Shown here: in pieces, positions 25,536-52,205 of the stretch | How the letters are laid out: every line of letters starts with the position of its first letter | Numbering within the stretch: the stretch's first letter is position 1 | Virus record (IMG/VR): IMGVR_UViG_3300014208_000030 | Span: 104,076-168,075 of that record | Length of the DNA: 64,000 nt | Origin: a virus | Taxonomy: Duplodnaviria; Heunggongvirae; Uroviricota; Caudoviricetes | Strand: one strand, 5' to 3' | Made by a program: the position numbers and the translations under genes | Notes under the pieces: generated by a model | The model's input: the letters and a program-made list of their open reading frames with translations, nothing else | Databases searched by the model: none | What the model was told of the DNA's origin: nothing

Positions 25536-25621
25536 ATATTATGTCCTCTGTATTGTTGTAATCTCTTTAGGTGAAGTCGACATTATACATTATTTCTGGC
25601 TATTGTCAATATTTGCAGAAG

Positions 25622-25629
25622 TATAAATA
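25622..25629 (+). promoter_or_regulatory. T4-type late promoter TATAAATA
   Basis: gTATAAATAaaggatacacaaccaatataaaggactactaaATG; identical cassette upstream of 31766 and 37271. Confidence 0.75.
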
Positions 25630-25661
25630 AAGGATACACAACCAATATAAAGGACTACTAA

Positions 25662-27593
25662 ATGCCTATTTCTGCCCACGAACGCCACCTGATGAACGGT
25701 GGCTTGTTGCGCCCTGTCTCAAAGTCACTTGCAGACACCACAATTCACCCATTCGCAACCCTTGCCGCAAGACCGACTGCGTCGGAATTCGGAGTTGGTC
25801 ATGCGAGTATTGTTACAGCAACATACCGCATCAACTGTTCATCGGATGGCGTTAGCTGGGATAGTCACGGATCGAGTAGCTCAATTGCGGACAGGCCGAG
25901 TGCTGCTGCGCTTGGGAAAGGGAGTTGGCAGGATGGAGCGAATATTTATAGCTGCGATGGAGTAGGCTATGCATTAGTTGGTAGTGCAGACCCATCTACT
26001 TTTACAAATATTTTAGTAAATGGTGATAGCACATCAGTTAGGAATATTTTGGACGGTTGGTGGAAAACATCGGGCGGAGGAACGATAGCGATCAATGTCA
26101 CGGTAGGTGATATTCAGCAGTCATGTCACGCTGATTTAACGGCTGGCTCAGTAGGATATTTAAACTTCCGTGCATCAGACCAGAGCTACCAGTGGAGAGC
26201 GCCAGGCGATGACAGTTACGGCCCGTGGGTTGCTACTGTGCCAAACACGCGAGTAAGACTGGAGTCATCAAGCGCCAATAAATCGTGTTTTGTGGGTGTT
26301 ACTGGACTATCTGCTATTGACGTAAATGCACAAGCCATCACGATATCTTCAGGTTCTCCAACTATAACTGTGTCGGACGATGGCCTTGAGTCTATTCTAA
26401 GATATTTTAGGATTGACTTATCAAATGTCGCGAAACACGGAGTGGGCGGAACAACTATAGCGACTATGCTGCAATCACTGCCCTATATCAACTTAAATTA
26501 CGGCGGAGCTGGGCTAGATATAACCAGTTTAGGAATAAATGATGGCGCCACGACAACCGACGAAGCAACCACAAAATTAGCGCAGTATGCAGCATATATC
26601 GATTCAAGACTTGCGAATGGCAGGACTATTATATGGGTTGGAGTTAAGGGAAGAACTACGGGGGCAGGTGCTGCATATAACGCTTGGGGGACTACATTCC
26701 TAACTTCCTTCAATCTTGAATTTCAGCGTAGATTACATGGATTATTGCTAGAATACGCAAGAAACTTTCCGAGCACATTTAAGTATGTAAATACACTAAG
26801 TGATTTCATGGATGCGGGGTATTTGGATTTCAGACCTAAGGTATCAACCGATAACTGGGTTACTACAGATACTGTACACCAATCAGCACTCGGAGGACAG
26901 TTGATTGCTATTAATGCAGTAACCACAGCTAAGGACATCATTAAATACGGCGATGATTACTCCGATAATAGTAATAATTTACTCGGCACAATGGGTATTT
27001 ATACTGGCACAACAGCCGTAGTATCGGCGGCATCGGGACAGTCGGGTGTATTGCCAACTGGGATAATCGCCAATCCTGGCGGCTCGATTGATGGGACATG
27101 CGTTTATAGTGTAGTGCAAAGATCAACTAATATTGCCAGTTATGCGGCTATAACCGGGAAGAAACAGTTCAATGCTATAAAAATGGTTATGTCAAATGGA
27201 GTTGCAGCGCCACTTGGATTCTATGGGATAAAGGGAAGCACTGCATCGTGGACAGGTACGCTTATTGGGTTAGCAGCTGGAGATTTAATCAGGGTTGGTG
27301 TTTATCTCGACTCACTAAGCGCTGAAGTTCATGGTATTGCATTTAAGTGGAATTATGTTGGTGTAACTCCGCAAAATAATATATATACTCCAGACCAAGG
27401 TGGACAGACTAACTCACCCGGTATGCTGGCCTTCTCTGATACAAGATTATATGTTAGTCCATGGTTTGCTGTTTCTGCTAATTTTCTAGCAACAAATAGT
27501 TTTTTACCTGATTTTAGAGTATATCCAAAAGCTGGTGCAACTGGGGTAGAGTTAAATATTGGGCCTATGTTTATTGAAAAATACCCCGTATAA
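25662..27593 (+). CDS. receptor-binding / tail-fibre-like protein, paralog 1 (643 aa)
   Basis: N-terminal ~90 aa (MPISAHERHLMNGGLLRPVSKSLADTTIHPF...GKGSWQ) near-identical to two other genes; divergent Gly/Thr/Ser-rich C-terminus; late promoter. Confidence 0.65.
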   Translation: MPISAHERHLMNGGLLRPVSKSLADTTIHPFATLAARPTASEFGVGHASIVTATYRINCSSDGVSWDSHGSSSSIADRPSAAALGKGSWQDGANIYSCDGVGYALVGSADPSTFTNILVNGDSTSVRNILDGWWKTSGGGTIAINVTVGDIQQSCHADLTAGSVGYLNFRASDQSYQWRAPGDDSYGPWVATVPNTRVRLESSSANKSCFVGVTGLSAIDVNAQAITISSGSPTITVSDDGLESILRYFRIDLSNVAKHGVGGTTIATMLQSLPYINLNYGGAGLDITSLGINDGATTTDEATTKLAQYAAYIDSRLANGRTIIWVGVKGRTTGAGAAYNAWGTTFLTSFNLEFQRRLHGLLLEYARNFPSTFKYVNTLSDFMDAGYLDFRPKVSTDNWVTTDTVHQSALGGQLIAINAVTTAKDIIKYGDDYSDNSNNLLGTMGIYTGTTAVVSAASGQSGVLPTGIIANPGGSIDGTCVYSVVQRSTNIASYAAITGKKQFNAIKMVMSNGVAAPLGFYGIKGSTASWTGTLIGLAAGDLIRVGVYLDSLSAEVHGIAFKWNYVGVTPQNNIYTPDQGGQTNSPGMLAFSDTRLYVSPWFAVSANFLATNSFLPDFRVYPKAGATGVELNIGPMFIEKYPV

Positions 27594-27614
27594 GCGCTTA
27601 TGTAATGAAATAAA

Positions 27615-27716
27615 TTGCTGCTAGTCGCCCGATTAGCAGCAAGCTTTCAAACTCGGAAAACCCAGCAAATTCACAGTTCGGCAAGGCTTAGAATTAACAA
27701 CATCCGGAAACAAAGC
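27615..27716. repeat. ~100-bp conserved 3' flank of RBP cassette (hairpin ttgctgcta/tagcagcaa + tttcaaactcggaaaacccagcaaattc...agaattaacaacatccgg), copy 1
   Basis: second copy at 38723-38812 downstream of paralog 3. Confidence 0.8.
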
Positions 27717-27724
27717 TCCCAACA

Positions 27725-30160
27725 CTATTTTAAATTGTAGCTTATGACTTTATAATCGAATTGATCTTTTGCATAATATCCTACTCGTTTCTCGAAATGG
27801 TCTAGGGTATGATTTTTGTAAGATTTATACGACATATCGTCCGCCAAATCGAACAGGTTACAAACATATTTCCCATTCCCCTTTCGCAGACCACGCCCAA
27901 CTGACTGCAAAACTTTTATCTTGCTCTTGTATGGTGATGCAAAAATAATATTGTCAATCCGCTTGATCGAAACACCGGTAGAAAATGTGCCATATGATGC
28001 AACTATCGTACAGTCATCTGTAGTCTCGGCAATCTGCCTAACAGCATCTCTGGACTCAACATCAACCTTGCCATGTATAAAGTGACAGTTACCAGCATCT
28101 TTTAGCAAATTGTAGATAGGCAGACCCTGCTTCCCGACGAATGTGAACAGTATTAGCGTATTACCTTTCAGAGAGTTCGCCAATCCGGCAATGAAGGCAT
28201 TTCTGCGCTCACTGGTGCATAGATAATCCATTTCTTGAGCATACGTAGCCTTGCTCCGAGCCATTGCCTTAGCAACTTCCTCGCGGTGCTTAATCAGGAT
28301 GCAGCTGATCTTCAGATTAGCGGCCTGACCGTTATCAATCAGTTCTCTGGTAGTTATAGTCTTAAATGCTTTCCCAAACAAACCCTCGATGACCAACCGG
28401 TTACATTTGCTGTCCTGCAAACTTCCGGTGAACCCGACTCGATAGGCGACATTGTGAGCCCTCTCCATAATATCGGTAATTGACTTAGATTTTGCAGTGT
28501 GGCAATTGCCTACTACAACAACAAAACCTTTTCTACGGACAATAATATTCCCAGACGGCACAGTAACGCAATGCACATTACCAGAATATTGGACGCGCTC
28601 TTTTTGCATCCCTTGCGTCCCTATGATATTGGTCTTCCGGATATATAATCTATGCACATCGGAAAACTTATCGCTCCTGCTATCTATCTGAATAGTTTTT
28701 CTTGCTATATATCCCGCTAGTACAGCAACGGTCTGATAAAAATCAACCGAGCACTCGGATGTGTTCGAATAGTAGTATCGATTCTCGCTGGATATGCTGC
28801 CATCCCAAATAACCATATACTCTATGATTTCTTTCGCCGTTTCGCTAGATAGTGTTGATACGTCAAAAAATGTAGATACATCCTTTGTCGCATAATCAAT
28901 ATTATATATACTAAACCGACGTTTTTCTTTGGTTTTCCCGTATGCTGGTATACTCTTCAGCTCATTATATGAAAACCCACCCTCAGCCATCAGTGCTAGG
29001 AACTCAGTTATTTTTCTTTCTTTAGAAAACTTAAACTGTAATACTTGTTTTCCGCCATCCCGACCAACAATACATCCGTCTGCTTGGAGTGCAATCATAA
29101 GCTTTTGTTTTGGTGTAAGTGGTCCAGAATCGCCTACGGCAAGCCCAGCCCCATATAGATTACATAAGGCATTAAAATTAACTTCTGCCGCAGTTACTTT
29201 TTTGTCAACATAGCCGTGCTTCTGTGTTCGCCTAATTAGCATATCATGGTTTGGAGTTACTAAAAGGTCTATTCTACTATCACTACTTATATGTACTAGC
29301 TCACCATCATAGTGCTTAGTGATATATCTAAGTGGCTTAACGAATGATATATTACCACAATCGTACTGAGCAACATCCGCAACCTCGCTCAATTCATCGA
29401 ATCGAACAAATCCTCTGTTTGTCAATATTTCTGTATCTGGAGAGAAGCACTCATCCTGAACAATCATATCGAACTGCTCATAATATGAGATTGGCATTTT
29501 TGCCATCGATTGGTAGGTAGTGAAGGTCAGTTGCTTATCGGTCTGCTTCTCCTGCCCAGAGTAGATCATGTGGCTTCTACCCTCAACATCCCATCCGCTT
29601 ACGCTAGAATAGTCAATGAAATCGGACTTCATTTGCGCCACCAGACCGACGGTTGGGAATATCAATAATACACGCTTCACTTCACCGATAGCTATCAGAT
29701 ATCTGATTGTGCTAAAGATAATCAGAGATTTCCCCGACGAAGTGGGGCTCTCGATGGTCGCCCTACGGTTGTCTAGAATATGTTTTATGGCGTCGACTTG
29801 GTAGTCATATACTGTGATAGGGTTTCCGGCAGAGTGCAACCGAAGAACATCGGCAATGTATTTTTCGATGATGGCTCTATCGTTGTCCACGACAGGATGT
29901 ACATCCTCATCATACTCTACTGTATAGCCAGCCTGCGCAGCGAATTCGAGAATGTGATAGAACAGGCCAGCATAAATGTTGCGAGTACCGGCGTTGAGGA
30001 GCCTGATTGTGCCATTCCACAACCCATGCTTATATGCCGGTGTAAACTTTGCACCTTCAACATCAAACGTGAAATGCGCAGCCATTTCGACAATAACACA
30101 TTTCTCGGCATCAATGTGCACATATACTTCGTTAAGTTTTCGAATTCGGATATCAGCCAT
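27725..30160 (-). CDS. uvsW: UvsW-like DExH (SF2) DNA helicase interrupted by an in-frame intein
   Basis: Walker A SPTSSGKS; extein blocks recalled to match T4 UvsW (KCNRLVIEGLFGKAFKTITTRELIDNGQAANLKI, TIVASYGTFSTGVSIKRI, VLQSVGRGLRK); motif II reads IVQDE|C...N|CHTAKS. Confidence 0.9.
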   Translation of the reverse strand: MADIRIRKLNEVYVHIDAEKCVIVEMAAHFTFDVEGAKFTPAYKHGLWNGTIRLLNAGTRNIYAGLFYHILEFAAQAGYTVEYDEDVHPVVDNDRAIIEKYIADVLRLHSAGNPITVYDYQVDAIKHILDNRRATIESPTSSGKSLIIFSTIRYLIAIGEVKRVLLIFPTVGLVAQMKSDFIDYSSVSGWDVEGRSHMIYSGQEKQTDKQLTFTTYQSMAKMPISYYEQFDMIVQDECFSPDTEILTNRGFVRFDELSEVADVAQYDCGNISFVKPLRYITKHYDGELVHISSDSRIDLLVTPNHDMLIRRTQKHGYVDKKVTAAEVNFNALCNLYGAGLAVGDSGPLTPKQKLMIALQADGCIVGRDGGKQVLQFKFSKERKITEFLALMAEGGFSYNELKSIPAYGKTKEKRRFSIYNIDYATKDVSTFFDVSTLSSETAKEIIEYMVIWDGSISSENRYYYSNTSECSVDFYQTVAVLAGYIARKTIQIDSRSDKFSDVHRLYIRKTNIIGTQGMQKERVQYSGNVHCVTVPSGNIIVRRKGFVVVVGNCHTAKSKSITDIMERAHNVAYRVGFTGSLQDSKCNRLVIEGLFGKAFKTITTRELIDNGQAANLKISCILIKHREEVAKAMARSKATYAQEMDYLCTSERRNAFIAGLANSLKGNTLILFTFVGKQGLPIYNLLKDAGNCHFIHGKVDVESRDAVRQIAETTDDCTIVASYGTFSTGVSIKRIDNIIFASPYKSKIKVLQSVGRGLRKGNGKYVCNLFDLADDMSYKSYKNHTLDHFEKRVGYYAKDQFDYKVISYNLK
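28505..29449 (-). mobile_element. intein (~315 aa) with LAGLIDADG-like homing endonuclease domain, inserted in helicase motif II (DE^CH)
   Basis: starts CFSPDTEILTNRGFV, ends ...GFVVVVGN followed by extein Cys; internal LYGAGLAVGDSG LAGLIDADG-like motif; extein junction rebuilds DECH. Confidence 0.8.
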
Positions 30161-30191
30161 AATATAAATAGTCTCTCGGTTTGATTATCTA

Positions 30192-30656
30192 CTATTTATA
30201 CTGGCCTGCTGCCTCATCTATAATAATAACGTGGTTGCTGTGCGAGACTAGCTCATAATTCACATAACCTATTGCGCCGTCGTGGCTGCGAATGGCTGCG
30301 ATCATAGCTTGGTCATTCGGCACTTCGTGCACGCCAACATGACCGGTATATCGAGTGGATACGCTAAGTTCTCGCAAGTACCTATATAAGGTCATACCCA
30401 AAGTACTCGACACAAACAATTTATGTTCTGGTGAATTAAGTGGCTTGGTGTACACAATAATTGCTTGCCCATCATCCCACACGACATCTTGCCGAGTAAA
30501 AATTCGCTGAATATCTACCCTATCCAGAAACATGGTATTATCTGAGTTATATCTGGAGTACATTATCTGCGGCTTGAAAGTTTCCCGTGATGTTAGCGTC
30601 GGTGCAGCTACTAACAACATGATGCAGAATAATGAGATGATCAGGCACTTTTTCAT
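30192..30656 (-). CDS. hypothetical secreted protein (signal peptide MKKCLIISLFCIMLLVAAPT)
   Basis: N-terminal signal sequence; last gene of a late operon. Confidence 0.5.
   Translation of the reverse strand: MKKCLIISLFCIMLLVAAPTLTSRETFKPQIMYSRYNSDNTMFLDRVDIQRIFTRQDVVWDDGQAIIVYTKPLNSPEHKLFVSSTLGMTLYRYLRELSVSTRYTGHVGVHEVPNDQAMIAAIRSHDGAIGYVNYELVSHSNHVIIIDEAAGQYK
30193..30200 (-). promoter_or_regulatory. late promoter TATAAATA upstream of uvsW
   Basis: - strand agTATAAATAgtag ~32 nt before ATG; T4 uvsW is late-transcribed. Confidence 0.6.
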
Positions 30657-30661
30657 TGTGG

Positions 30662-31111
30662 CTATTTATTTACTCGATTGTAAATTTGGTTAATGGAGTT
30701 ATCCAGTTGCTCAACGTGCTGCATGAGCTCTTTAAATGATGATGCAATCTCTACTTTCGTATCTGCGATGCTTTTTTCGGTATCTTTTGTCGCAGTTTTT
30801 TGCGATTCCAAGTCCTTTTTCATCTGGTCTATAATCAACTCGGTACTCACTTTTTGTGTGGCTAACTGATTATTTATGCTAACCCATGCGCCGATCAGTG
30901 AGCCGCTCAGGGTGATGATGACCACCAGACCCGATAATATTTGGGTTATCGTATAGGTTCCGCTATTCTTTGTTGGTGTCGCATCCACTTGCGGTGTCGA
31001 TGAGCTCATATGCAAGGTAGTTAGATGATCTAGTCTGGCTAGCACTACATCGATCAACTCGTCATTGGTGTTAGGATTACAGGCAGAAGGTGGCTGGTGT
31101 CGTCTGGTCAT
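30662..31111 (-). CDS. hypothetical type-II membrane protein with periplasmic coiled coil (spanin/antiholin-like?)
   Basis: single TM ITQILSGLVVIITLSGSLIGAWVSI, then heptad-like polar C-terminus. Confidence 0.45.
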   Translation of the reverse strand: MTRRHQPPSACNPNTNDELIDVVLARLDHLTTLHMSSSTPQVDATPTKNSGTYTITQILSGLVVIITLSGSLIGAWVSINNQLATQKVSTELIIDQMKKDLESQKTATKDTEKSIADTKVEIASSFKELMQHVEQLDNSINQIYNRVNK

Positions 31112-31123
31112 GGTGGATGTCCG

Positions 31124-31657
31124 TTAAATAAACTTGAAATTAGAATACTTGAACACTGCTGTGCAGGTCAGGTAGCTAATATCATTTATGGTGGTTGAAA
31201 ACTTTAACCCCGATAGCTTGACTGGAAACATGTCGACAAAATTTATTGTGTTGTGGTTCAGATTACTGTTATTAGTAAGGATTGCTAATGTGCCGTCGGA
31301 GTAAAGCGAGGAATGGTTTTGTGGATTGTATGAGGCCAGAAGACGATGACTTTCGAGTTGATGGAATTCTGCATACTGATCGAGTGATTCTGGGTGCCCT
31401 ACGCCAACCATCCACGAGAAAATTTCTTTATATGACTTCATATCTTCGTCAACAACGAAATTCAGGACGAATTCGCCGAAATCCAATTTATCACCAAGCA
31501 CCGGTATATCCAGCATGGGTGTATTCTGCGCAGCACTCCCGAATGATACGGATGGTAGCTCAACTTCCTGTGCGAAAAATACCGTCGTAGGGAGTTTCTC
31601 GATAGTTAATTGGAAGCCAGTTGGCGATAGAAAATTGATGTTAGTTGGTGTTGCCAT
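31124..31657 (-). CDS. hypothetical late (probably structural) protein (177 aa)
   Basis: ORF preceded on - strand by cTATATAAATAcaac late promoter (31688-31695). Confidence 0.55.
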   Translation of the reverse strand: MATPTNINFLSPTGFQLTIEKLPTTVFFAQEVELPSVSFGSAAQNTPMLDIPVLGDKLDFGEFVLNFVVDEDMKSYKEIFSWMVGVGHPESLDQYAEFHQLESHRLLASYNPQNHSSLYSDGTLAILTNNSNLNHNTINFVDMFPVKLSGLKFSTTINDISYLTCTAVFKYSNFKFI

Positions 31658-31687
31658 AGGTGATTCCAGTTATTTTTGCTGTTGTTG

Positions 31688-31695
31688 TATTTATA
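31688..31695 (-). promoter_or_regulatory. late promoter TATAAATA (- strand)
   Basis: seen in sequence. Confidence 0.6.
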
Positions 31696-31725
31696 TAGAT
31701 GGGTTAATTGTAATTTTCTTTAAAG

Positions 31726-31733
31726 TATAAATA
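31726..31733 (+). promoter_or_regulatory. late promoter TATAAATA (RBP cassette copy 2)
   Basis: same 40-nt promoter-leader as at 25622. Confidence 0.75.
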
Positions 31734-31765
31734 AAGGATACACAACCCATATAAAGGACTAATAA

Positions 31766-33324
31766 ATGCCTATTTCTGCCCACGAACGCCACCTGATGAA
31801 CGGTGGCCTGTTGCGCCCTGTCTCAAAGTCACTTGCAGACACCACAATTCACCCATTCGCAACCCTTGCCGCAAGACCGACTGCGTCGGAATTCGGAGTT
31901 GGTCATGCGAGTATTGTTACTGCAACATACCGCATCAACTGTTCATCAGATGGCGTTAGCTGGGATAGTCACGGATCGAGTGATTCAATTGCAGATAGGC
32001 CAAGTGCTGCTGCGCTTGGGAAAGGGAGTTGGCAGGTAGGTGATTTATTATACCATTCCGCTGGCGCATCATGGAAAACAGAAAAACTAGCAAAAAGAAC
32101 AAATGTATTAACCCGTTGCCCTACTGGAACTACACAAAACTACACTGGTAAAGGTGGTTTCACATTTAATATTCAGGCTGAGTTGGCTGGCGTTCCAATG
32201 GCGGTGCGTATTGCCATTCCAAATCACACAGCGGGAACACCAACTATTGCTGGTAGTTTTGGTTTTGATACTGCTATGGGTGATATTAATTCTGTGCAAT
32301 CGCGGGGGGCAATGTAGCTACATGGTATCCACTGACATTTGGTGGTGCTGCTTCTGGGACACATGCTGCAAGAGTTAGTGCTACCGAACCATCGTGGTTA
32401 TGGTCTGATTTAATTCCTTGCTCTGCATTACCTCGCGTGGACAGTGAAAGTGGGGCAATTATTCATACTAGGCTTATACAAGGCACAGCTGGTGGTGATG
32501 CCACTTCGTGGTCTGCAATGTGGGCACCTCACGCACTTGTTGCAGATATTATTAAGCATCAATGGAGGGGATGTGCTTCTGCTGCTGCTGTTGACTATGC
32601 AACAACTAACCAAGCAGCTTTTACTACAGGCTCAAACTCTGGAACGGCTAATACAACACACTTACCCTGTATGATTCAATATGTTTCGCTCACACAAGGG
32701 CAGACATTATTAACAATTGGTGATTCCATAACTGCTGGGTTAAATACAGGTACGGGTGGAGCCGCAGCAAATGGTTATGGGTGGACGGCTAAGTTACGTG
32801 ATCTATTATCTACTCCAGAAGTTCCAGTTGAATTATGTAATCTTGGGTATTCTGGGGCAACTATGGCTATGATAACTGGAATATACACTAGAAATGCTAG
32901 TGAACTAAAGAATTGCTTATTACTACATACTATGTATACACCAAATAGTATAGATGTAGTATTGGCCAAAAAAGAGCTAGTAAAATCATTAGCCATTATG
33001 GATAGTATGGGTCATGTTCCTATTTACTGGACAGGGTTGCCTAGAAATGCAACTGTAGCTGGTGGAGGTTTAGGTGGTACTAGTGCAGCTAATCTAGGCG
33101 CGTATGAGGCACAACGAGTAGAATATAATATAGAAATTTTAAGTGCTAATGAAAATGTACTGGATTTATCATCGGCTGTATCTGGCTCAGTTGTTGCTAG
33201 TGGTACAGCGGCAGGCCAAATGGAATATGCGATAGGAAATAGTGATGATGGATTACATCCTAATAATACAGCGCATGATGATATTGCCAATTACGCATAC
33301 CCGTACTTACTTAACAGAATATAA
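31766..33324 (+). CDS. receptor-binding/tail-fibre paralog 2 with C-terminal SGNH/GDSL esterase domain, split by a frameshift in a G6 tract (parts 31766-32317 and 32290-33324)
   Basis: N-terminal 183 aa identical family domain ends at TAG 32315; frame +1 is open from 32290 and encodes LLTIGDSITAGL (GDSL motif) to 33324; adding one G at 32304-32309 (cgcGGGGGGc) fuses the two. Confidence 0.6.
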
Positions 33325-33387
33325 TTCGAATAGTGGCGGCGTCATTAGGCCAAGGGCATTACCAGCAACAGTATTATCATTTGCCAC

Positions 33388-33416
33388 TTGACAAACAACC
33401 ACCAAGGTGGTATACT
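33388..33416 (+). promoter_or_regulatory. strong sigma70 promoter TTGACA-17-TATACT
   Basis: perfect -35, 17-nt spacer, TATACT; points into a 730-bp region with no ORF. Confidence 0.6.
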
Positions 33417-33599
33417 AGTCAATTAATCGCATCAGCTGACAGGAAGTTAGCGAAAGCGTCTGGAGAATTCACTCCGGCAAAGAGCGCACCTCTATCATAG
33501 CCTAGTATGGCAGTTAGAGTCACCAACGATGAAGCTATATGCCTCTGTAGTGTTGAGCATGCACCCCGTGGAATCTTTTGATTCATTATTGAGTTCGGC

Positions 33600-34147
33600 A
33601 ATAATGTTAATTCCCAAATAACCGTTCATGATGCACCCTAGAGGTGCAGCCAGTTGCAGTTAGTGATTCCGTTTTGCAACTGGTGCCGCTATGATACCAG
33701 CAAACAGATGTAAAGGCAACCGCATAGCCATGCCTACCTCATTATATGGGGTTTTCTCGGAATATCTTACGACAGTCTTTTCTGTAATAAGATTTTGTCT
33801 GCAAGGCAAAATCTTTCTCTTGTCTTTTTAAAATCTTTTATAAAAGCTTTTTTAAAAAATATCTTTATGGCCTTCGGCGGTGCTACGCACCAGTACCTTA
33901 ATGGCTTTTATAAAAATAGCTTTTCTTATTTAAACAACATTGAACCGCGCGAAGCGCCGCCGTAGGCGTTTCTATAATAACTTTTTATAAAAGATTTTAT
34001 ATTAACTGCTATAACAGTGGTTATAGAAAGCCTCCGGCGGTGCTGCGCACCAGTCATAATATGTTGTTATTTAAAAATAATACATGAACCACACGAAGCG
34101 AAGCGACGTAGGAGCTTCCTATAACCACTGCTATAAAAGCTTTTATA
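33600..34147 (+). ncRNA. candidate structured non-coding RNA region: two tandem ~130-nt repeat units (33870-33990, 34000-34140) plus upstream hairpins
   Basis: units share cggcggtgct[ag]cgcaccagt...tgaacc..gaagcg..cgtagg...ataaaag.tttt; internal inverted repeats ccttcggcgg/ccgccgtagg, ggtgc/gcacc; 12-bp imperfect IR gcagccagttgca/tgcaactggtgc at 33640-33690; no ORF >60 aa on +. Confidence 0.35.
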
Positions 34148-34155
34148 TATAAATA
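34148..34155 (+). promoter_or_regulatory. late promoter TATAAATA
   Basis: tatTATAAATAaaggatacagaaccaatataaagggctataaaATG. Confidence 0.7.
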
Positions 34156-34187
34156 AAGGATACAGAACCAATATAAAGGGCTATAAA

Positions 34188-34565
34188 ATGTCACAAAAAG
34201 AGTATCCAGTATCAAGCACTTCTCTAAGCGGTGGGACTATACCGGCTGTTGTTATTATGCAGCTAGATGGTGACGGAAATCCTCAGCCAGCCGCTATTGG
34301 GGCATCGGTCACATCAACGCCATATACATTAATAGCAACAACACTAATAATAGCTGTAGGTACAAAAAACCCGCCATTCACGGTGACATTAAAATCGGCA
34401 GATGCAACTAGAAAGATTGAATTTTCTACGGATGGCGGCACTGAATATTTTATACCGGCAATCGATATAACAAGCGCAACCATGCTAATCACTTATGCAT
34501 CGGCACCAATTACCCATATAAAAGTAACTGGTCTTATTAATGATACCCTGATAATAGTTGGTTAA
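34188..34565 (+). CDS. hypothetical late/structural protein (125 aa, Thr/Ala/Ile-rich)
   Basis: ORF behind late promoter. Confidence 0.5.
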   Translation: MSQKEYPVSSTSLSGGTIPAVVIMQLDGDGNPQPAAIGASVTSTPYTLIATTLIIAVGTKNPPFTVTLKSADATRKIEFSTDGGTEYFIPAIDITSATMLITYASAPITHIKVTGLINDTLIIVG

Positions 34566-34566
34566 T

Positions 34567-35373
34567 ATGGGATTTCCAGATAGAAGCAAACTAAGACATA
34601 CATTATGGGCAAATAGAGGTCCAGCTGATGCTCAGGGTTCACAGATTCTAATTACAGACATTGGAGAATATGGTGCAGTCTATACTAGTAATGGTATTGA
34701 GTGGGCACATAGTGGCGAGATAGAGATTATACAAAAAGCCAAAGGCTGGTTATGCCCATCTCTCGCAGCAGCAAATGCAGCATCATATGCTCAATCTGGT
34801 AATGTAATTACGGTCACATCGACTGGGCATAATATTCCAGATGTTGTTTATAACTCTAAGGATGTTTACCTGAACATGGGCGCAGCGGCTACCGGAGCAA
34901 CTATATCGGCAGGGTGGTTTAGCAACTTTCAATATGTTAGCGCAGATTCATTCACTTGCACATCTACATTGTCTCAAACCAGCACCGGAACGGTCAATAC
35001 CAACACAGCTGAAACTGTTGTTGGCGACTTAAGTGCTACTATTTTAGGTGGATTGCTGGACTTAAATGGGAAATTAAGCTTCTCTTTCTTATCATCAAAT
35101 AATAACAGCGTAAATAACAAAACTGTTAGGTTTAAGTTTGGTACTAATCCTATAAACTATAACAATACGACTGTGCTGTTTAGAAGCTTGAAGTCAGAAC
35201 CAATTAGCAATAGAAACAGTCAGACAAGTCAAGTGCTTGAATATGGTGGTGCCCCATATGTTTATTCAGTAGACACCTCAGCCGATTTTAGCTGTGGATT
35301 TGCTTTATTATGTGATGCCGCAAATAATTATGTAGCTATACATTCCGCCTCTTTTTACATATCGCCGAGTTGA
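34567..35373 (+). CDS. structural (fibre-associated?) protein, paralog of 39550-40290
   Basis: shared blocks ASYAQSGNVITVTSTGHNIP / TLSQTSTGTVNTNTAETVVGDL / SSNNNS.NNKTV; track start is TTG, ATG at 34567. Confidence 0.55.
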   Translation: MGFPDRSKLRHTLWANRGPADAQGSQILITDIGEYGAVYTSNGIEWAHSGEIEIIQKAKGWLCPSLAAANAASYAQSGNVITVTSTGHNIPDVVYNSKDVYLNMGAAATGATISAGWFSNFQYVSADSFTCTSTLSQTSTGTVNTNTAETVVGDLSATILGGLLDLNGKLSFSFLSSNNNSVNNKTVRFKFGTNPINYNNTTVLFRSLKSEPISNRNSQTSQVLEYGGAPYVYSVDTSADFSCGFALLCDAANNYVAIHSASFYISPS

Positions 35374-35389
35374 TATGATGCGCGTAATG

Positions 35390-35397
35390 TATAAATA
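35390..35397 (+). promoter_or_regulatory. late promoter TATAAATA
   Basis: gTATAAATAaaggatatacaacc...ATG. Confidence 0.7.
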
Positions 35398-35425
35398 AAG
35401 GATATACAACCATTCGGGAATACCC

Positions 35426-36307
35426 ATGAAAATAACTTTTAAGCAACTGGTTGAGAGTCACTACGGTGTGCTTACAGAGGAGCTACATCAGGAGCTGAAA
35501 GATGTACTAAATGCACCGGAAACAGATCGTAGCGGTACTTCCGGTAAGCTTTACCAGCGCAAATTGACCAACTTTTCGGCGAAGGTAAAGGATTTATCCA
35601 AGCGTGGCGAAGATACTGGCCTAGAGGGTGGTACACCAAAACGTGGCAGCAGCCGCGCAGTATACTTTCCAACAGAACCAAAACACATCACAATCGATGG
35701 TGCACCAGCACAGCAACATACTGCGGTAAAAGTGGCTTTTGCCGGTGCTCTCGACAAACATACTGGCGACTCACATTTACTAGGTGAGCACCAGAACATA
35801 ATTGAGTCTGATCATTTTACCCGCGACAATCACTCTATGTTGAGGCATACCAATGATCACCATTACGAATATAACCCAGATGGAGTTACTGCTCCAGTAT
35901 TGGACCACCATGAGGACGGGCATTGGCTAGAGATGGCTCATGCCGACAAATTAACCGGTAAGAAATTTACAGAACTGACAAAAACAGAATCTCACCCAAA
36001 AGGTCTGAAGTTTGACCACTTTCATGAGGCGCTGAAAAATGATCATGCTGCTGCACATGGAGAACATAGCGGTACCGATGATCATGATCATTTACGGGAA
36101 CACCCACTATATCAGAACACACAAGACTTCATTTATAACACAGGAAATCATCCTGTTGACTTGAGGTTGCAGAGCATGGGCGTCTGGCGGCATCCGGTGA
36201 CGGGCAAAGAGCATCCTGTTATTCGCGATTATGGCTATAGCAACGATATCGCCAAACTATATTCAAAGGGCGGACAGAACTCAATGAAAGCCAATCGTGG
36301 CTGGTAA
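35426..36307 (+). CDS. hypothetical His-rich late protein (293 aa)
   Basis: ORF behind late promoter; many HH/DH pairs. Confidence 0.5.
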   Translation: MKITFKQLVESHYGVLTEELHQELKDVLNAPETDRSGTSGKLYQRKLTNFSAKVKDLSKRGEDTGLEGGTPKRGSSRAVYFPTEPKHITIDGAPAQQHTAVKVAFAGALDKHTGDSHLLGEHQNIIESDHFTRDNHSMLRHTNDHHYEYNPDGVTAPVLDHHEDGHWLEMAHADKLTGKKFTELTKTESHPKGLKFDHFHEALKNDHAAAHGEHSGTDDHDHLREHPLYQNTQDFIYNTGNHPVDLRLQSMGVWRHPVTGKEHPVIRDYGYSNDIAKLYSKGGQNSMKANRGW

Positions 36308-36340
36308 TTTTGGTCTTAATTTAAAATAAGAGGAGCAGTA

Positions 36341-36790
36341 ATGGAGTATTTAATACCATTAGCATATATAGTATTGGGATTGATTGGTGGAAGTTTCCAC
36401 TACATCAAAAAACGCTATATCGATGAGACGACTCAACAAAGTTTTTGGGCATACCTAAAAAATGATTTCCGCGCAACAAAGAGAGCAACATTCACCATCA
36501 TCACTACCGAAATTGCGCTTGCAGCGGCATCCGGAGGTGTTTTGGGTATGAATGGCATAATTGGTGCGCTGACATTAGGGTACTCTGCAGACAGTGCGAC
36601 GAACATTGCTTCGGATGCAGAATTAGTCGCAGCAGCAAAGGCAGCAGGAGAAATATTCTCAAAACCAGCTGCTCCGGAGTCAGCACAACCAGTTGTTATT
36701 TTAAAACAAGAGCATAAGATAGAGGAAATTGTCAACCATGATAAAAAAACGAGTATTGCTGATTTGCTTTCTGCTGATAAGTCTCTGTAG
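36341..36790 (+). CDS. hypothetical membrane protein (149 aa, two hydrophobic segments)
   Basis: TM-like LIPLAYIVLGLIGGSF and AAASGGVLGMNGIIGALTLGY; RBS aagaggag. Confidence 0.5.
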   Translation: MEYLIPLAYIVLGLIGGSFHYIKKRYIDETTQQSFWAYLKNDFRATKRATFTIITTEIALAAASGGVLGMNGIIGALTLGYSADSATNIASDAELVAAAKAAGEIFSKPAAPESAQPVVILKQEHKIEEIVNHDKKTSIADLLSADKSL

Positions 36791-37040
36791 TTGCGCACCA
36801 GCATTAGTAAATTTTCAAGGTGTTGCCAGACCGGCAGCGAAAGACTGCCCAACCCTAACACCAAAGCCTATCTGCCAAACTGTTACGTGCCCCGCTCTGG
36901 ACATCCCATCACGGGTACCAGATAACGTAGTTATTGAGATTGCTGACGGCAAAATCGTCACACTGAATACCGGTGGCGAGGAACTACTGCGCAATTATAT
37001 GGCAACACGAAAAGCTATTTCAGAGTCGTGGAAAAAGTAA
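36729..37040 (+). CDS. putative lipoprotein overlapping the 3' end of the upstream membrane-protein gene (spanin-like arrangement?)
   Basis: MIKKRVLLICFLLISLCSCAP signal with Cys; 62-nt out-of-frame overlap with 36341-36790. Confidence 0.4.
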   Translation: MSTMIKKRVLLICFLLISLCSCAPALVNFQGVARPAAKDCPTLTPKPICQTVTCPALDIPSRVPDNVVIEIADGKIVTLNTGGEELLRNYMATRKAISESWKK

Positions 37041-37216
37041 TATTTCTGGTAATGTCCCTTTATGGCTGCACTTATACGGCACATGAAGGGAGCCCACCAG
37101 ATTTTTCGTGCTCACCAACGCTGATACCAATGATTGCATCACCACCACAACAACAGCAGAAAATTCCAAAACAGCGACTCGATGGTGTCATTGTTGGAAT
37201 AGACTGCGAATACTAG
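37028..37216 (+). CDS. hypothetical small protein (62 aa)
   Basis: ORF only. Confidence 0.3.
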   Translation: MEKVIFLVMSLYGCTYTAHEGSPPDFSCSPTLIPMIASPPQQQQKIPKQRLDGVIVGIDCEY

Positions 37217-37230
37217 GAATTTTCTAGAAG

Positions 37231-37238
37231 TATAAATA
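37231..37238 (+). promoter_or_regulatory. late promoter TATAAATA (RBP cassette copy 3)
   Basis: same promoter-leader as 25622 and 31726. Confidence 0.75.
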
Positions 37239-37270
37239 AAGGATACACAACCCATATAAAGGACTACTAA

Positions 37271-38653
37271 ATGCCTATTTCTGCACATGAACGCCACCTG
37301 ATGAACGGTGGCCTGTTGCGCCCTGTCTCAAAGACACTGACCGACACCACAATTCATCCCTTCGCATCCCTTGCCGCTAGACCGACTGCGTCGGAATTCG
37401 GAATTGGGCATGCGAGTATTGTTACTGCAACATACAGAATCAATTGTTCATCGGATGGTGTTAGCTGGGATAGTCACGGGTCGAGTGACAGCATTGCAGA
37501 TAGGCCGAGTGCGGCTGCATTGGGGAAAGGGAGTTGGCAGGTTGGCAATTCGGTTGAATATAGTGACGGAGTTGCTTATGTAAATCCAGCAAACACAAAG
37601 CAACCGACCTTAGTATGGGACGCTGCTAAAGCTAAAGCATCTTCTGGGTTTGGAAATGCTAAAGTTTTATTCCTTGGCGATAGCATTACGGCAGGCGCAT
37701 TTGCAACCAACGGAACGAGTTACGCTAATGCAAAAATAAACGCAACGCCAGCACACATAGCAGCAAAAATGGCAGCAAATGGGTTTGCAACATCAAAAAG
37801 CAGCTGGTTTGGCATGCAAAATCAAGGTACTGTTGCTGCCTTAGCTACATACGACCCACGTTTATCTTTCGGGGCAGATTGGGCTTCTATTAATGGCACA
37901 AAGAGCCTTGGCGGAGATCTTGTAGTAAATGCGGCAAGTGCGTCTACAACGGCTCTTTCGTTTACTCCCACCGAAGCATTCGACACTATCGACATATATT
38001 ATGTAAGAAACACCTCGTACGGTAGTTTTACAGTCGATATTGGAGCAGGAGTAATAGCAACTCAGTCAGCAACAGGATCAACAGGAGTACTTGTTTTAAG
38101 TCTTACTGTTGCTAGTGGACTGCATACTGTTAATATTTCTCACGTTGCCGGGACTGGATCTGCAGCAATAGTTGGGATGAGTTGCTATACAAATAACTCA
38201 GAAGTGCAAGTTATAAATGCTGGCTTGCCTGGCGCACTCGCTACCACACTTTTCACTGGTACTGGATTTTCTCCGGAAGCGGCTATTAATACATTAAACC
38301 CTGATTTAACAGTTATAAATCTTACTACTAATGACGCTCAAGCTTTGATAGCTACAGCAACTGCAATGGCAAGCTTGCAAGTAATAATTGATAGATGCTT
38401 ATTATCAGGAGATGTTGTACTGTGCGTCCCTAATCCAGTCAGTTCGAACGTAGCGACAGCAGAAGAATATTATACTGCTATTCGCTTGCTTGGTTCAGAA
38501 AACTCATTAAATGTTTTTGATTACTCTACTGGTCTTGGCGTTGACTGGGCCGTGGTTAACGCCAATGGACTGATGAAAGATGCTTTACATCCAAAACAAG
38601 CAGGTTATAAGGCAATTGCTGATATAGCTGGGAGCTATGGTGTTTTATATTAA
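37271..38653 (+). CDS. receptor-binding/tail-fibre paralog 3 with SGNH/GDSL esterase domain (460 aa)
   Basis: conserved N-terminal 90 aa; KVLFLGDSITAGAF GDSL motif; C-terminal ...DALHP(K) block as in paralog 2. Confidence 0.7.
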   Translation: MPISAHERHLMNGGLLRPVSKTLTDTTIHPFASLAARPTASEFGIGHASIVTATYRINCSSDGVSWDSHGSSDSIADRPSAAALGKGSWQVGNSVEYSDGVAYVNPANTKQPTLVWDAAKAKASSGFGNAKVLFLGDSITAGAFATNGTSYANAKINATPAHIAAKMAANGFATSKSSWFGMQNQGTVAALATYDPRLSFGADWASINGTKSLGGDLVVNAASASTTALSFTPTEAFDTIDIYYVRNTSYGSFTVDIGAGVIATQSATGSTGVLVLSLTVASGLHTVNISHVAGTGSAAIVGMSCYTNNSEVQVINAGLPGALATTLFTGTGFSPEAAINTLNPDLTVINLTTNDAQALIATATAMASLQVIIDRCLLSGDVVLCVPNPVSSNVATAEEYYTAIRLLGSENSLNVFDYSTGLGVDWAVVNANGLMKDALHPKQAGYKAIADIAGSYGVLY

Positions 38654-38722
38654 TAAAATTCATTACTTTGCACGTATTAGAATTAACAATACTAATAGTT
38701 TATAGTTTTAATATCTACATCC

Positions 38723-38812
38723 TTGCTGCCAGTCACCCTCTAGCAGCAATTTCAAACTCGGAAAACCCAGCAAATTCGCATTTGTCCAAGTCTCAGAATT
38801 AACAACATCCGG
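38723..38812. repeat. conserved 3' flank of RBP cassette, copy 2
   Basis: matches 27615-27716. Confidence 0.8.
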
Positions 38813-38828
38813 TCAGGCCGGAACAAAC

Positions 38829-39549: not shown

Positions 39550-40290
39550 ATGGGCACAAAAGCAAAAAATTCAGCTGTTCGTAACTTCCTGCATGTTGGG
39601 TTGTCATGGGCACAAGCCAGCGAATTGGCAAAATCTCCGTATGTAGAGCTAAAAAATGCTGGCGGCTATATCGTTCCAGCACATCAAGCCGGTAACGCAG
39701 CCACTTGGTCGCAGTCTGGTACTGTTGTTACTGTCACTTCAACAGCACACACAATCCCAGCAACAACATATGATGGCTATAAAGTTTATTTCTCATCTGC
39801 GACAACAACTGGCATGCCACTGGCTGCTGGTCTGTATGAGAATTTTACTCGCACAGGCACAGGCACATACACATTTACAGTACCGGCAACATTGTCGCAA
39901 ACAGCGACTGGAACTGCTACTACAAACACTACGGAAACAGTTATTCCTGACCTGACTGCAGCAATGCCAGCCAATACAATGGGCGTAACCAGCAAGCTGA
40001 AATATACCGTAGCATCGTCAAACAACAACAACGCTGGCACAAAGACTGTGAAGTTGTACGTCAGCACTGCTGTTCTTGGCACCATTACCACAACAACTGC
40101 TATATTCGGTAATATGGTAACAGATTACTGGTTCAATAGAAACAGCTTGGCGAAAAACGTTGTGCAATCTACTGGTGTATCGACAACAATCAATATGGGT
40201 GCTGCCCAGAACATTACGGTATCGGTCACAAACTCAGCTGCCGATCAGTTTGTCGCAGTGGATTCCGTCATAGTTGAATTGTTAGTCTAA
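39550..40290 (+). CDS. structural protein, paralog of 34567-35373 (246 aa)
   Basis: shared sequence blocks (see 34567). Confidence 0.55.
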   Translation: MGTKAKNSAVRNFLHVGLSWAQASELAKSPYVELKNAGGYIVPAHQAGNAATWSQSGTVVTVTSTAHTIPATTYDGYKVYFSSATTTGMPLAAGLYENFTRTGTGTYTFTVPATLSQTATGTATTNTTETVIPDLTAAMPANTMGVTSKLKYTVASSNNNNAGTKTVKLYVSTAVLGTITTTTAIFGNMVTDYWFNRNSLAKNVVQSTGVSTTINMGAAQNITVSVTNSAADQFVAVDSVIVELLV

Positions 40291-46223: not shown

Positions 46224-46580
46224 ATGGAAACCACACAAGAAAAAACATTTGAGATACTGGATGTTGGTAATTCTCAGCACAGGCTTACTATTACGCCAAG
46301 CAGAATTACTATTAAATTCAAAAAAGATACACTGCGCGAAGAACGAGACGAAGTCATCAGTTTCTTTATCGCAGTCTCACAGGATGAAGATATGCAAAAC
46401 TGTGAGTGCTCATTCCGAGGTTCGGCGACAGTAACCGGTACCGGTAAGCTGCATATTATTATGCACGATGGTAGTCATGGTCGCAGTACGATGAACTATC
46501 ACTATTACTATGATAATGTTAATAAAAAATTAGACGATAGTCTGTTATTTAAAAATAAGAAAGCGAGGATTGCAGCATGA
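46224..46580 (+). CDS. hypothetical protein (118 aa)
   Basis: ORF, 4-nt overlap with next gene. Confidence 0.45.
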   Translation: METTQEKTFEILDVGNSQHRLTITPSRITIKFKKDTLREERDEVISFFIAVSQDEDMQNCECSFRGSATVTGTGKLHIIMHDGSHGRSTMNYHYYYDNVNKKLDDSLLFKNKKARIAA

Positions 46581-47848: not shown

Positions 47849-47850
47849 TC

Positions 47851-50606: not shown

Positions 50607-50680
50607 GCGGGTATAGCAAAACGGTTATGCAACTGGCTTCCACCCAGTTCACGGGAGTTCGACCCTCCCTACCCGCTCCA
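50607..50680 (+). tRNA. tRNA-Gly (anticodon TCC)
   Basis: hand-folded cloverleaf: acceptor gcgggta/tacccgc, anticodon stem actgg/ccagt loop cTTCCAc, T-arm gggag-ttcgacc-ctccc, 3' CCA encoded. Confidence 0.8.
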
Positions 50681-50702
50681 AATAACATAGGGAAGCATAA
50701 TA

Positions 50703-50936
50703 ATGGCAGTAGAAGTGAGAGTATTTGAACCTGATCCGGCACACATCTGCATTAGGAATGCTGGGAAGTGGTCACTGAGTATGAATCCAAATATGTTTGG
50801 TCGCGTAACTCATATTAGATATTTGAATGAGTTTGAGTGTGACCTCATCAATGGAGCAATAAAAGCCGCGCAGCGTGCAATGGATATAGCATCTGGAGTA
50901 CCTTCTGAAGCTGATCCTAACCGGATAGATAATTAA
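50703..50936 (+). CDS. hypothetical small protein between tRNA genes (77 aa)
   Basis: ORF only. Confidence 0.3.
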   Translation: MAVEVRVFEPDPAHICIRNAGKWSLSMNPNMFGRVTHIRYLNEFECDLINGAIKAAQRAMDIASGVPSEADPNRIDN

Positions 50937-50945
50937 AAAGTTTTT

Positions 50946-51021
50946 GCGCCAGTAGCTCAATGGTAGAGCGTTCCCCTCATAAGGGATTGGTTTTTGGTTC
51001 GAATCCAAACTCGGCGCACCA
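50946..51021 (+). tRNA. tRNA-Met/Ile2-like (anticodon CAT), acceptor stem with one bulged C
   Basis: D-arm gctc-aatggta-gagc, anticodon loop cuCAUaa, T-arm tttgg-ttcgaat-ccaaa, CCA encoded; acceptor gcgccag pairs with ct(c)ggcgc only if one C is bulged. Confidence 0.55.
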
Positions 51022-51027
51022 AATAAT

Positions 51028-51101
51028 AAGTCATTAGCTCAACGATAGAGCGGCTAGGTGCACTAGTAGATGGTGGGTTTAACTCCCATCATGGCTTGCC
51101 A
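51028..51101 (+). tRNA. tRNA-like element (anticodon arm unresolved)
   Basis: acceptor aagtcat/atggctt + g + CCA, D-arm gctc-aacgata-gagc, T-arm-like gtggg-tttaact-cccat; central region ctaggtgcactag is palindromic and gives no canonical 7-nt loop. Confidence 0.35.
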
Positions 51102-51960: not shown

Positions 51961-51979
51961 TATATAATGAGGCAGTGAA

Positions 51980-52168: not shown

Positions 52169-52177
52169 AAATAAAGC

Positions 52178-52205
52178 TTGACAAGATGTAAAAAGTGTGT
52201 ATAAT
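52178..52205 (+). promoter_or_regulatory. sigma70 promoter aaagcTTGACA-16-TATAAT
   Basis: perfect hexamers upstream of tRNA-Ser. Confidence 0.65.

Follow-up and report, generated by a model that had tools for sequence, protein, structure and literature searches.

Late genes with a common 5' arm and different esterase bodies in a distant T4-like phage: probable cassettes exchanged between phage lineages

Why would a phage genome carry three genes that open with the same promoter, leader and coding start and then diverge completely? The question is raised by a 64-kb stretch of viral DNA (64,000 nucleotides (nt), positions 104,076 to 168,075 of the IMG/VR record IMGVR_UViG_3300014208_000030; hereafter the window), in which the genes starting at positions 25662, 31766 and 37271 are here called c1, c2 and c3. 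An earlier sequence-only reading had proposed that they are receptor-binding-protein cassettes with a built-in design for module swapping. To judge from its gene content, the source phage is a distant T4-like myovirus, since Pfam, PHROG and homology searches found homologues of gp3, UvsW (interrupted by an intein) and gp32 in the window, together with a NAD-dependent DNA ligase, an RNA ligase, NAD-salvage enzymes and a tRNA cluster. We propose that the three genes are late, anchored esterase cassettes that have been exchanged between phage lineages, an explanation that we consider probable as a whole.

The common unit, here called the 5' arm, is about 315 nt long and consists of the late promoter TATAAATA, a 32-nt leader between TATAAATA and the ATG, and the first 91 codons. 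A repeat search returned it as a direct repeat in three copies, at 25619-25918, 31723-32022 (96% identity) and 37228-37527 (90%). In the alignment, similarity begins 3 nt upstream of TATAAATA and ends at about codon 91-92, where ungapped identity per 10-nt block falls from 80-100% inside the arm to 20-40% beyond it; the near-identical start followed by divergence to background, as first noticed in the sequence-only reading, is thus borne out. The non-coding part of the first copy occupies 25619-25661 on the plus strand, with the T4-type late promoter at 25622-25629 followed by the conserved leader, and its counterparts on the same strand lie at 31723-31765 (TATAAATA at 31726-31733) and 37228-37270 (TATAAATA at 37231-37238). 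The arms of c1 and c2 differ at 12 of 276 nucleotides, those of c1 and c3 at 32 and those of c2 and c3 at 29, and most of the differing codons are synonymous (7/9, 20/26 and 20/24, respectively). The motif TATAAATA is enriched in the window, with 20 sites against 5.4 expected, and by analogy with T4 it would act as a late promoter. A 22-nt promoter/leader core, TATAAATAAAGGATACACAACC, has five matches in the window against 0 expected. The promoter and leader, taken earlier as a mark of the three genes, are present at all three, but they also precede two other genes: a fourth copy (34148-34187, plus strand, 84% identical) stands before an unrelated gene for 125 amino acids (aa) at 34188-34565, and a fifth, partial copy (35390-35411, plus strand) before a 293-aa gene at 35426-36307 that is conserved in a sister phage described below. 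The promoter and leader are common to five late genes and the coding arm to three.

Beyond residue 95, no similarity among the three proteins was found by BLAST. In c1 (25662-27593, plus strand, 643 aa), the arm (codons 1-91, 25662-25934) is followed by a probable split SGNH esterase and a C-terminal extension of about 240 aa. In c2 (31766-33324, plus strand), whose frame is broken in the window as discussed below, the 91 arm codons lead to a middle domain of about 220 aa and a compact SGNH domain. In c3 (37271-38653, plus strand, 460 aa), the arm is joined to an SGNH esterase with a beta-sandwich insert of about 180 aa between blocks I and II; the corresponding insert measures 140-180 aa in c1 and c3. 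The sequence-only reading had credited two of the three genes with GDSL/SGNH motifs. The four SGNH blocks (GDS / G / GxND-like / DxxH) are found in canonical order in all three, at GDS 121, GVGG 262, GIND 291 and DTVH 403 in c1 (by pattern match only), GDS 319, GYSG 361, PNS 392 and DGLH 495 in the repaired 519-aa c2 protein, and GDS 136, GLPG 318, TND 352 and DALH 437 in c3, but Pfam significance is confined to c2, whose C-terminal part matches PF00657 (27.9 bits, cut-off 23.6), and c3, which matches PF13472 (50.8 bits, cut-off 32.9). Among the PHROGs, c2 matches a tail fibre family, and its C-terminal part and c3 fall into families annotated 'tail fiber' and 'tail protein'. For c1, there was no PHROG match and no Pfam match even at E<=1. 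A comparison of c1 with the c3 family by hhalign covers blocks II-III only (E 3e-4, probability 39%), and the 75% identical c1 homologue P0001 matches phrog_6102 'lipase' at 1e-7, so that c1 is probably an esterase as well.

Structure prediction clarified the C-terminal domains in part. The AlphaFold model of c3, a monomer prediction from 14 aligned sequences, has a mean predicted local distance difference test score (pLDDT) of 80.8 and adopts, from about residue 105, an SGNH fold with an inserted beta-sandwich, whereas the AlphaFold2 model of c1 from a 4-sequence alignment reached a pLDDT of 35 and gave no usable fold. The c3 model superposes on the SGNH esterases 4k3u, 8gkd and 4rsh; its best solved matches in Foldseek are the Ape1 O-acetylesterases 4k3u and 8gkd (E 4e-15), with target-normalised template modelling scores of 0.72 and 0.68, and identity to Ape1 is 15%. 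It has the Ape1-type layout, in which the SGNH domain is split between blocks I and II by a beta-sandwich, and the insert resembles CBM35 and CBM6 structures in Foldseek. In BFVD, the model is matched best by phage hydrolases, tail fibre proteins and minor tail proteins. Inspected by eye, the three N-termini show no signal peptide. The profile matches and the model show that c2 and c3 each carry a predicted C-terminal carbohydrate O-acyl esterase of the SGNH type. A relative of the c3 esterase (34% identical) is encoded without the arm in a high-GC phage from IMG/VR (L001:9800-11110), between the scaffold and major capsid genes, a site unusual for a tail enzyme; as it lacks the arm, it was set aside as evidence on cassettes.

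The three genes could also be ordinary paralogues that arose by two duplications in this lineage, their N-termini being held by selection for docking and their C-termini having diverged, with no mobility involved. The four SGNH blocks in all three bodies leave room for a very distant common catalytic origin, and the mostly synonymous differences between the arms are those expected under purifying selection. However, the leader and the synonymous sites of the arm are 90-96% identical and the very next codons are at background, and such a step-like boundary contradicts gradual divergence. The layouts of the bodies also differ, a compact SGNH domain after a 220-aa domain in c2 standing against the split SGNH domains of c1 and c3. 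Two further points against the paralogue explanation come from other phages and are given with the evidence from them.

The protein part of the arm belongs to a family of its own. In the c3 model, residues 1-27 are of low confidence save for a short helix, and residues 28-100 form two beta-hairpin units (pLDDT 77-85), each with the motif (A/D)RPxAxxFGxG...SDGxxW. Profile searches of this N-terminal module against Pfam, PHROGs and PDB sequences gave no match, and it does not correspond to the recognised anchor types (T7 gp17-like, T4 gp10-like, XD). A word-indexed protein search with the 92-aa arm alone gave no match either, and the family surfaced only in a full HMMER scan of 1.84 billion proteins, in which the module was found in 59 cluster representatives of 70-952 residues, almost always within the first ~200 positions. 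The C-termini joined to it include 21 GDSL domains, 4 CE4 polysaccharide deacetylases, and SASA/sialate O-acetylesterase, GH43 and pectate-lyase-like domains. Within the window, it is carried by c1, c2 and c3 only. The first ~30 residues (MPISAHERHLMNGGLLRPVSK...) are closely matched only in the sister T4-like phage and on L016, a contig of a metagenome-assembled genome; P0004, a protein encoded on contig L008, resembles them weakly by eye, and the other lineages have different leading peptides. The family shows that the module is, as far as comparison of proteins can tell, a portable unit fused to many carbohydrate-active C-termini, which agrees with the scheme of a constant N-terminal part and a varying, horizontally transferred enzyme set out by Latka et al. 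(PMC6872550).

The enzyme bodies have their own relatives elsewhere. Residues 75-643 of c1 are 75% identical (70.7% at the DNA level) to P0001, which adjoins a P22-type portal gene on a contig from the same sample (L003); the two proteins are homologous from ADRPSAA onwards and differ over the first 45 residues of P0001. P0063 has its first 78 residues in common with P0001 (78% identical) and continues as a c3-like esterase that is 44% identical to c3. Two anchors have thus been combined with the same two enzyme bodies, and the presence of c1-like and c3-like bodies behind a different anchor in another lineage speaks against simple paralogy. P0003, 44% identical to c3 over residues 33-459, is encoded on contig L004 downstream of Mu-type baseplate genes (gp44-48 equivalents). 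It shares its first 130 residues (62% identical) with its upstream neighbour L4_652, from which it then diverges, so that the same architecture is repeated in L004, the pair lying a few genes downstream of the baseplate genes. In P0004 (L008) and P0065 (L016), the arm is joined to yet another C-terminus. Taken together, these comparisons show that enzyme bodies have been exchanged between phage lineages sharing a habitat, with an apparent junction within the conserved coding stretch DRPSAAxxGxGxWQ or immediately behind it. A neighbouring gene may have accompanied the c1-like body: the 268-aa late protein encoded at 34567-35373 (plus strand) has a 65% identical homologue (L003:4594-5439) directly upstream of the c1-like gene P0001 of the P22-portal phage. 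The 268-aa protein, which also has a 246-aa paralogue at 39550-40290 (35% identical), and the c1-like gene may travel together, the former as a partner or adaptor.

A closer comparison is offered by a sister T4-like phage from the same sample (contig Ga0376277_0000679, 169.5 kb, coordinates given as L007), whose core genes are 67-75% identical to those of the window at the DNA level. It also has three anchor-sharing genes, with other enzymes and at other sites, one of them on the other strand: P0008 (615 aa, SGNH) is the one in reversed orientation and lies between UvsW and the gp3 block, P0038 (666 aa, SASA, matching the tail fibre family phrog_4201 at 1e-62) follows a conserved RNA-like region, and a 660-aa anchor gene (L007:12966-14948) follows the 293-aa gene. 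The sister arms are 71-76% identical among themselves (DNA) and 40-48% identical to the window arms (protein), so that arms of one genome are more alike than arms of different genomes. When the two genomes are compared, c3 together with its promoter and 3' element (about 37222-38825, 1.6 kb) stands out as a clean insertion in the window, bordered by the stop codon of a conserved small open reading frame (ORF) and the start of a conserved 96-aa gene. The slot of c2, flanked on one side by the gp3 promoter and on the other by that of the RNA-like region, a sigma-70 promoter, holds no gene in the sister phage, only an orphan TATAAATA. The clean indel at c3 and the empty c2 slot are again at odds with paralogy, and the three genes do not behave as ordinary vertical orthologs between related genomes, as the sequence-only reading had expected of exchangeable modules. 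They show that the unit of promoter, leader, gene and 3' flank behaves, on this comparison of genomes, as an insertable cassette found at varied sites around the UvsW-gp3 block. With its matrix of anchors and enzymes, the evidence largely refutes the paralogue explanation, which we regard as quite improbable.

Since the data derive from a metagenome, chimeric joins at the repeat could be suspected, and a contig from the Joint Genome Institute (JGI), L002, does start inside c1, at window position 26973. However, this break is not at an arm, and L002, a separately recorded contig, agrees with the window over 21,353 nt except for one difference of 1 nt; two of the gene copies and both 3' elements lie in this span. 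Moreover, the arms are 90-96% identical rather than identical and can be assembled through, and the same architecture is present in the sister phage and in three other contigs. An assembly artefact thus seems extremely improbable to us. The matching JGI contigs belong to samples 3300037810 and 3300014208, the 2017 and 2016 metagenomes of one well, GW1, which is part of a municipal-landfill metagenome study; we read GW as groundwater well and the phage habitat as groundwater next to the landfill.

The single difference from L002 concerns c2. In the window, the frame from 31766 stops at 32317 after 183 codons and another frame is open from 32302 to 33324, so that the gene at 31766, earlier counted among the three genes, is not a full one in this assembly. 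The frame is broken at a run of six G (32304-32309, plus strand), the only run of at least six G in the window, and one added G yields a protein of 519 aa. In L002 the run has seven G, and c2 is intact, with a 519-aa product identical to the repaired window sequence. The two lengths of the run are known from two assemblies, and the difference could be population heterogeneity, that is a phase-variable switch, or an assembly error. Hypermutable poly-G switches, in which a G tract inside the gene varies in length within populations and shifts the reading frame, reportedly occur in the receptor-binding genes of Campylobacter phages. The poly-G tracts of these phages are longer than the c2 run. 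A programmed -1 frameshift at the run was rejected, because the G7 allele is simply in frame.

The cassettes are also alike at their other end. As recognised in the sequence-only reading, c1 and c3 are followed by the same flank with a hairpin. The first copy of this 3' element (27615-27707, plus strand) begins with the hairpin TTGCTGCTA-loop-TAGCAGCAA (27615-27642) and continues with TTCAAACTCGGAAAACCCAGCAAATTC...CTTAGAATTAACAACATCCGG; the second (38723-38812, plus strand) has its hairpin at about 38723-38749 followed by the conserved 63 nt. These 63 nt (27645-27707 and 38750-38812) are 89% identical. An extra partial copy, a distal sub-repeat of 34 nt (AAATTC...TTAGAATTAACAA, 38656-38689, plus strand), stands directly after the c3 stop codon, and no copy was found after c2 by sequence comparison. 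The c1 copy is an orphan on whose position the next gene, UvsW, converges, and the c3 copy extends into the ribosome-binding region upstream of the unrelated 96-aa gene at 38829. The hairpin and TTCAAACTCGGAAA... (in some copies up to CAGAATTAACAACATCCGG) occur 3' of five genes that encode unrelated enzymes, namely c1, c3, P0003 (L004), a 611-aa gene (L008) and P0028 (L014), the last being an arm-carrying CE4 deacetylase on another myovirus contig. The non-T4 contigs with the element are thus the Mu-like phage L004 (89% identical over 56 nt), the myovirus L014 and the untyped 76-kb L008, which has the fullest copy (about 100 nt). In all three, the element extends into the ribosome-binding site that serves a small gene; the products from L004 and L008 are 47% identical and look by eye like small membrane proteins, and that of L014 starts similarly (MDKLL...). 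The flank of P0008 in the sister phage has no hairpin and contains two cut-off remnants of the small gene (MDKLLGAYIW... and MGKLLAAIDALNAGKSLANVAVWKK...). We therefore read the 3' element as a donor intergenic region, comprising the hairpin and the 5' untranslated region of the small membrane-protein gene, that would have been imported with the cassette. An RNA hairpin, a weak terminator and a protein site are candidate roles for it; only 2-3 T follow the stem. A sigma-70 promoter inside the element was rejected, as its best hexamers are 13 nt apart and a consensus scan found none. Of six loci returned by a metagenome scan for the element, five were chance matches in unrelated contigs of high GC content. 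The recombinational exchange proposed earlier thus stands insofar as bodies and cassettes have moved between phages, but the 'built-in' design was over-read, and the 3' arm is better explained as donor flank.

The small genes behind the cassettes in L004, L008 and L014 also bear on a different function. The three proteins could be late lysis or entry enzymes, for example peptidoglycan de-O-acetylases that aid a muramidase, with the N-terminus as a targeting or regulatory segment. The nearest solved structure to c3 is Ape1, beta-sandwich insert included, small membrane-protein genes follow the cassette in these three contigs, and a glucosaminidase endolysin is encoded 3 kb downstream in L008. 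On the other hand, identity between c3 and Ape1 is only 15%, the lack of a visible signal peptide in the three N-termini does not favour such a role, and the family members with GH43, pectate-lyase-like, CE4 and sialate-esterase domains point to exopolysaccharide. In PHROG and BFVD, the neighbours bear tail fibre or minor tail annotations, and the anchor-sharing genes of L004 lie near Mu-type baseplate genes. We consider a lysis role unlikely.

We therefore return to late, anchored esterase cassettes, for which the following mechanism can be envisaged. The N-terminal peptide of ~30 residues would dock c1, c2 and c3 on a common virion site, as yet a putative one, and the two-beta-hairpin domain would serve as a linker, with recombination usually taking place in its coding sequence. 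The esterases would be carried on the particle, most likely on the tail, and would deacylate different polysaccharides of the host surface during adsorption. The phage could have three specificities at the same time, or two if the c2 G run is out of frame. The arms may be kept alike within a genome by selection for the common docking partner together with duplication or gene conversion, and the 3' element, once present in two copies, could serve as a second homology arm. As the arms are direct repeats that flank the essential UvsW and gp3 genes, a single crossover between them would presumably be lethal, and useful exchange would thus proceed via gene conversion or recombination between co-infecting genomes.

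Several points weigh against this explanation. Receptor binding, virion attachment and simultaneous display are suggested by the late promoters, the tail-fibre neighbours in PHROG and BFVD and the tail-gene context of relatives, and the docking partner of the anchor is likewise putative; c1, c2 and c3 lie outside any canonical tail-fibre module in the source phage. The catalytic fold of c1 depends on a pattern match and a partial hhalign alignment, its model having a pLDDT of 35. The c3 model has no trimeric shaft or beta-helix, its residues 1-27 are of low confidence, and its nearest solved fold, a peptidoglycan O-acetylesterase, would also fit a lysis role. The identities between lineages are 44-75% for proteins and 70-89% for DNA, which makes the exchanges historical. 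The hairpin stem is kept in all five copies with no compensatory changes and thus no covariation, and the G6/G7 difference in c2 may be an assembly error.

The searches also define how far the relatives extend. There was no near nucleotide match to the region among 50,697 phage records; a distant search of these records gave only matches of UvsW to cyanophages, and a tblastn search with c1 gave no match. Two scans of the arm against GTDB representative genomes gave no match and hence no prophage or host clue. An IMG/VR scan with the arm returned one contig only, L014, and neither the leader nor the 3' element gave a match in exact-pattern scans of IMG/VR. No record was found on look-up for P0067, a 460-aa variant of c3. 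Rfam searches of the window and of 33300-34200 gave tRNAs and sub-threshold noise only.

Between c1 and c2, outside the cassettes, lie two core genes on the minus strand. The UvsW helicase (27725-30160; Pfam UvsW_N, ResIII and Helicase_C) is 811 aa long and has its Pfam domains split by ~430 residues, helicase motif II being interrupted by an intein of ~317 residues (MIVQDE | CFSPDTEIL...VVVVGN | CHTAKS); the sister UvsW of 494 aa has no intein and adjoins a gene for a GIY-YIG homing endonuclease. The homologue of T4 gp3, the tail completion or tube terminator protein (31124-31657; phrog_45 at 7e-30, ~40% identical to cyanophage gp3), is a core late gene transcribed away from c2. The gene-free region after c2 (33388-33825) has, at 33388-33416, a near-consensus sigma-70 promoter (TTGACA, 17 nt, TATACT with TG) and, at 33789-33815, a hairpin resembling a terminator. 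This region, of which the sister phage has a 71% conserved counterpart (L007:9406-9909), has no Rfam match and a folding z-score of -1.85, and may encode a phage RNA of ~400 nt. It is followed at 33860-34130 by two tandem AT-rich units of ~130 nt, recognised by eye just upstream of the late promoter at 34148, each with the GC-rich boxes GGCCTTCGGCGGTGCTACGCACCAG and then GAACCGCGCGAAGCGCCGCCGTAGGCG. In the sister phage, the late-type promoter GATAAATA of the 293-aa gene lies in the loop of an inverted repeat, GGTGTTTCTTG-GATAAATA-CAAGAAACACC (L007:12006-12039), whose right arm is the conserved late leader.

More distant parts of the window (46577-49653 and 50607-54513) hold a NAD-salvage pair, composed of a fusion of ribose-phosphate pyrophosphokinase and a nucleoside deoxyribosyltransferase-like domain and of a NAPRTase/NAMPT-like enzyme; seven or eight clustered tRNA genes follow it. 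Outside the window, contig L008 (Ga0376277_0001985, 76 kb) encodes giant proteins of >3,500 and 2,067 aa with LPD and GGDEF domains, ParA, Rep3/TrfA-like replication proteins and an endolysin, and may be a phage-plasmid or another unusual phage.

How do the cassettes compare with known systems? Modular receptor-binding proteins of tailed phages have been described as depolymerases of Klebsiella phages (Latka et al. 2019, PMC6872550; 2021, PMC8262889), O-antigen tailspikes of E. coli phages (PMC10408124) and multi-tailspike complexes of Ackermannviridae (bioRxiv 10.1101/2024.03.21.586117). As in these, paralogues in one genome have a common N-terminal part and differing carbohydrate-active C-termini, and the enzyme part moves between morphotypes with a junction at a conserved linker. 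Unlike in these, the anchor has no match in Pfam, PHROG or PDB and is not of the T7 gp17-like, T4 gp10-like or XD type, the genes do not make up a tail-fibre operon but are dispersed around UvsW-gp3 as separate late-promoter cassettes, and the enzymes are predicted esterases rather than beta-helix depolymerases, with a putative attachment to the virion. SGNH deacetylases as tail proteins are known from Acinetobacter phage Aristophanes (PMC8471582) and Pectobacterium phage Possum (PMC9569702). They deacetylate the surface polysaccharide instead of cleaving it, and c2 and c3 belong to the same superfamily, but three different predicted esterases in one T4-like genome and the Ape1-type layout of c3 with its inserted beta-sandwich set the present case apart. 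Coliphage G7C gp63.1 is a further SGNH deacetylase tail protein.

Shuffling around short conserved sequences also has precedents. In T4-type phages, the shuffling of modules is mediated by PeSLs (promoter-early stem-loops), short non-coding cassettes of promoter and terminator (Arbiol et al. 2010, PMC2839356; Comeau et al. 2014, PMC4122927). Six copies of an intergenic repeat of ~73 nt between small early ORFs at 379-4342 of the window have the PeSL layout as in T4-type phages: TTGACT, a stem-loop (ACGGGTTCA...TGAACCCGT) that spans a GATATAT-type -10 element, CCAAAAACCAC, and a conserved ribosome-binding site (AAAAGGAACCG). Like PeSLs, the ends of the esterase cassettes are short conserved regulatory sequences that flank variable genes and supply homology by which otherwise unrelated sequences can be exchanged, and indel boundaries between close phages are found at the c3 and c2 slots, a functional resemblance rather than membership. 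Unlike PeSLs, which have an early sigma-70-type promoter overlapping a stem-loop terminator and recur between the ORFs of hyperplastic regions, the cassettes have a late promoter on the 5' side and no promoter on the 3' side; their 5' arm combines this late promoter with coding sequence, their 3' element is shared with non-T4 phages, and their cargo is large late genes rather than small early ORFs. In T4-type phages, tail-fibre tips and adhesins are shuffled at gp37/gp38 (Trojet et al. 2011, PMC3157838), and Alteromonas phages of distantly related families have host-recognition modules in common (PMC10579305). As in these two cases, specificity domains are swapped at short coding motifs and a module appears in unrelated backbones within one habitat, but compared with gp37/gp38 the protein family is another one, the junction is DRPSAAxxGxGxWQ rather than His-boxes or glycine-rich motifs, and the domains are enzymatic and not purely binding.

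The host range of tailed phages is largely set by exchangeable receptor-binding modules, and the exchange of enzyme bodies is a known route to new hosts, most worked examples coming from cultured phages of a few pathogens. The principle of an anchor with a horizontally transferred enzyme is already established, and our case adds a clean natural example, not a new concept. What is new, as far as comparison of genomes and proteins goes, is the anchor module, a T4-like phage with three putative esterases in separate late cassettes around a replication and tail block, the non-coding 3' element common to T4-like and non-T4 contigs and, possibly, the G-run switch of c2. A bolder proposal, which seems rather doubtful to us, is that the promoter-anchor junction and the 3' hairpin form a dedicated cross-lineage cassette system for late host-recognition enzymes, working at defined DNA sites in T4-like, Mu-like and podovirus-like phages of one host community, with a c2 poly-G switch added to it that would turn this cassette on and off in a phage population; if true, such a system would be the late-gene counterpart of the PeSLs for early genes. 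For applications, the junction motif and the 3' element offer defined cut-and-paste places for engineering specificity, and they could be used to mine metagenomes for host-recognition enzymes. For the biology of these phages, the cassettes offer direct evidence, drawn from comparisons within one groundwater community, that phages of different architecture have the same enzyme bodies in circulation among them.

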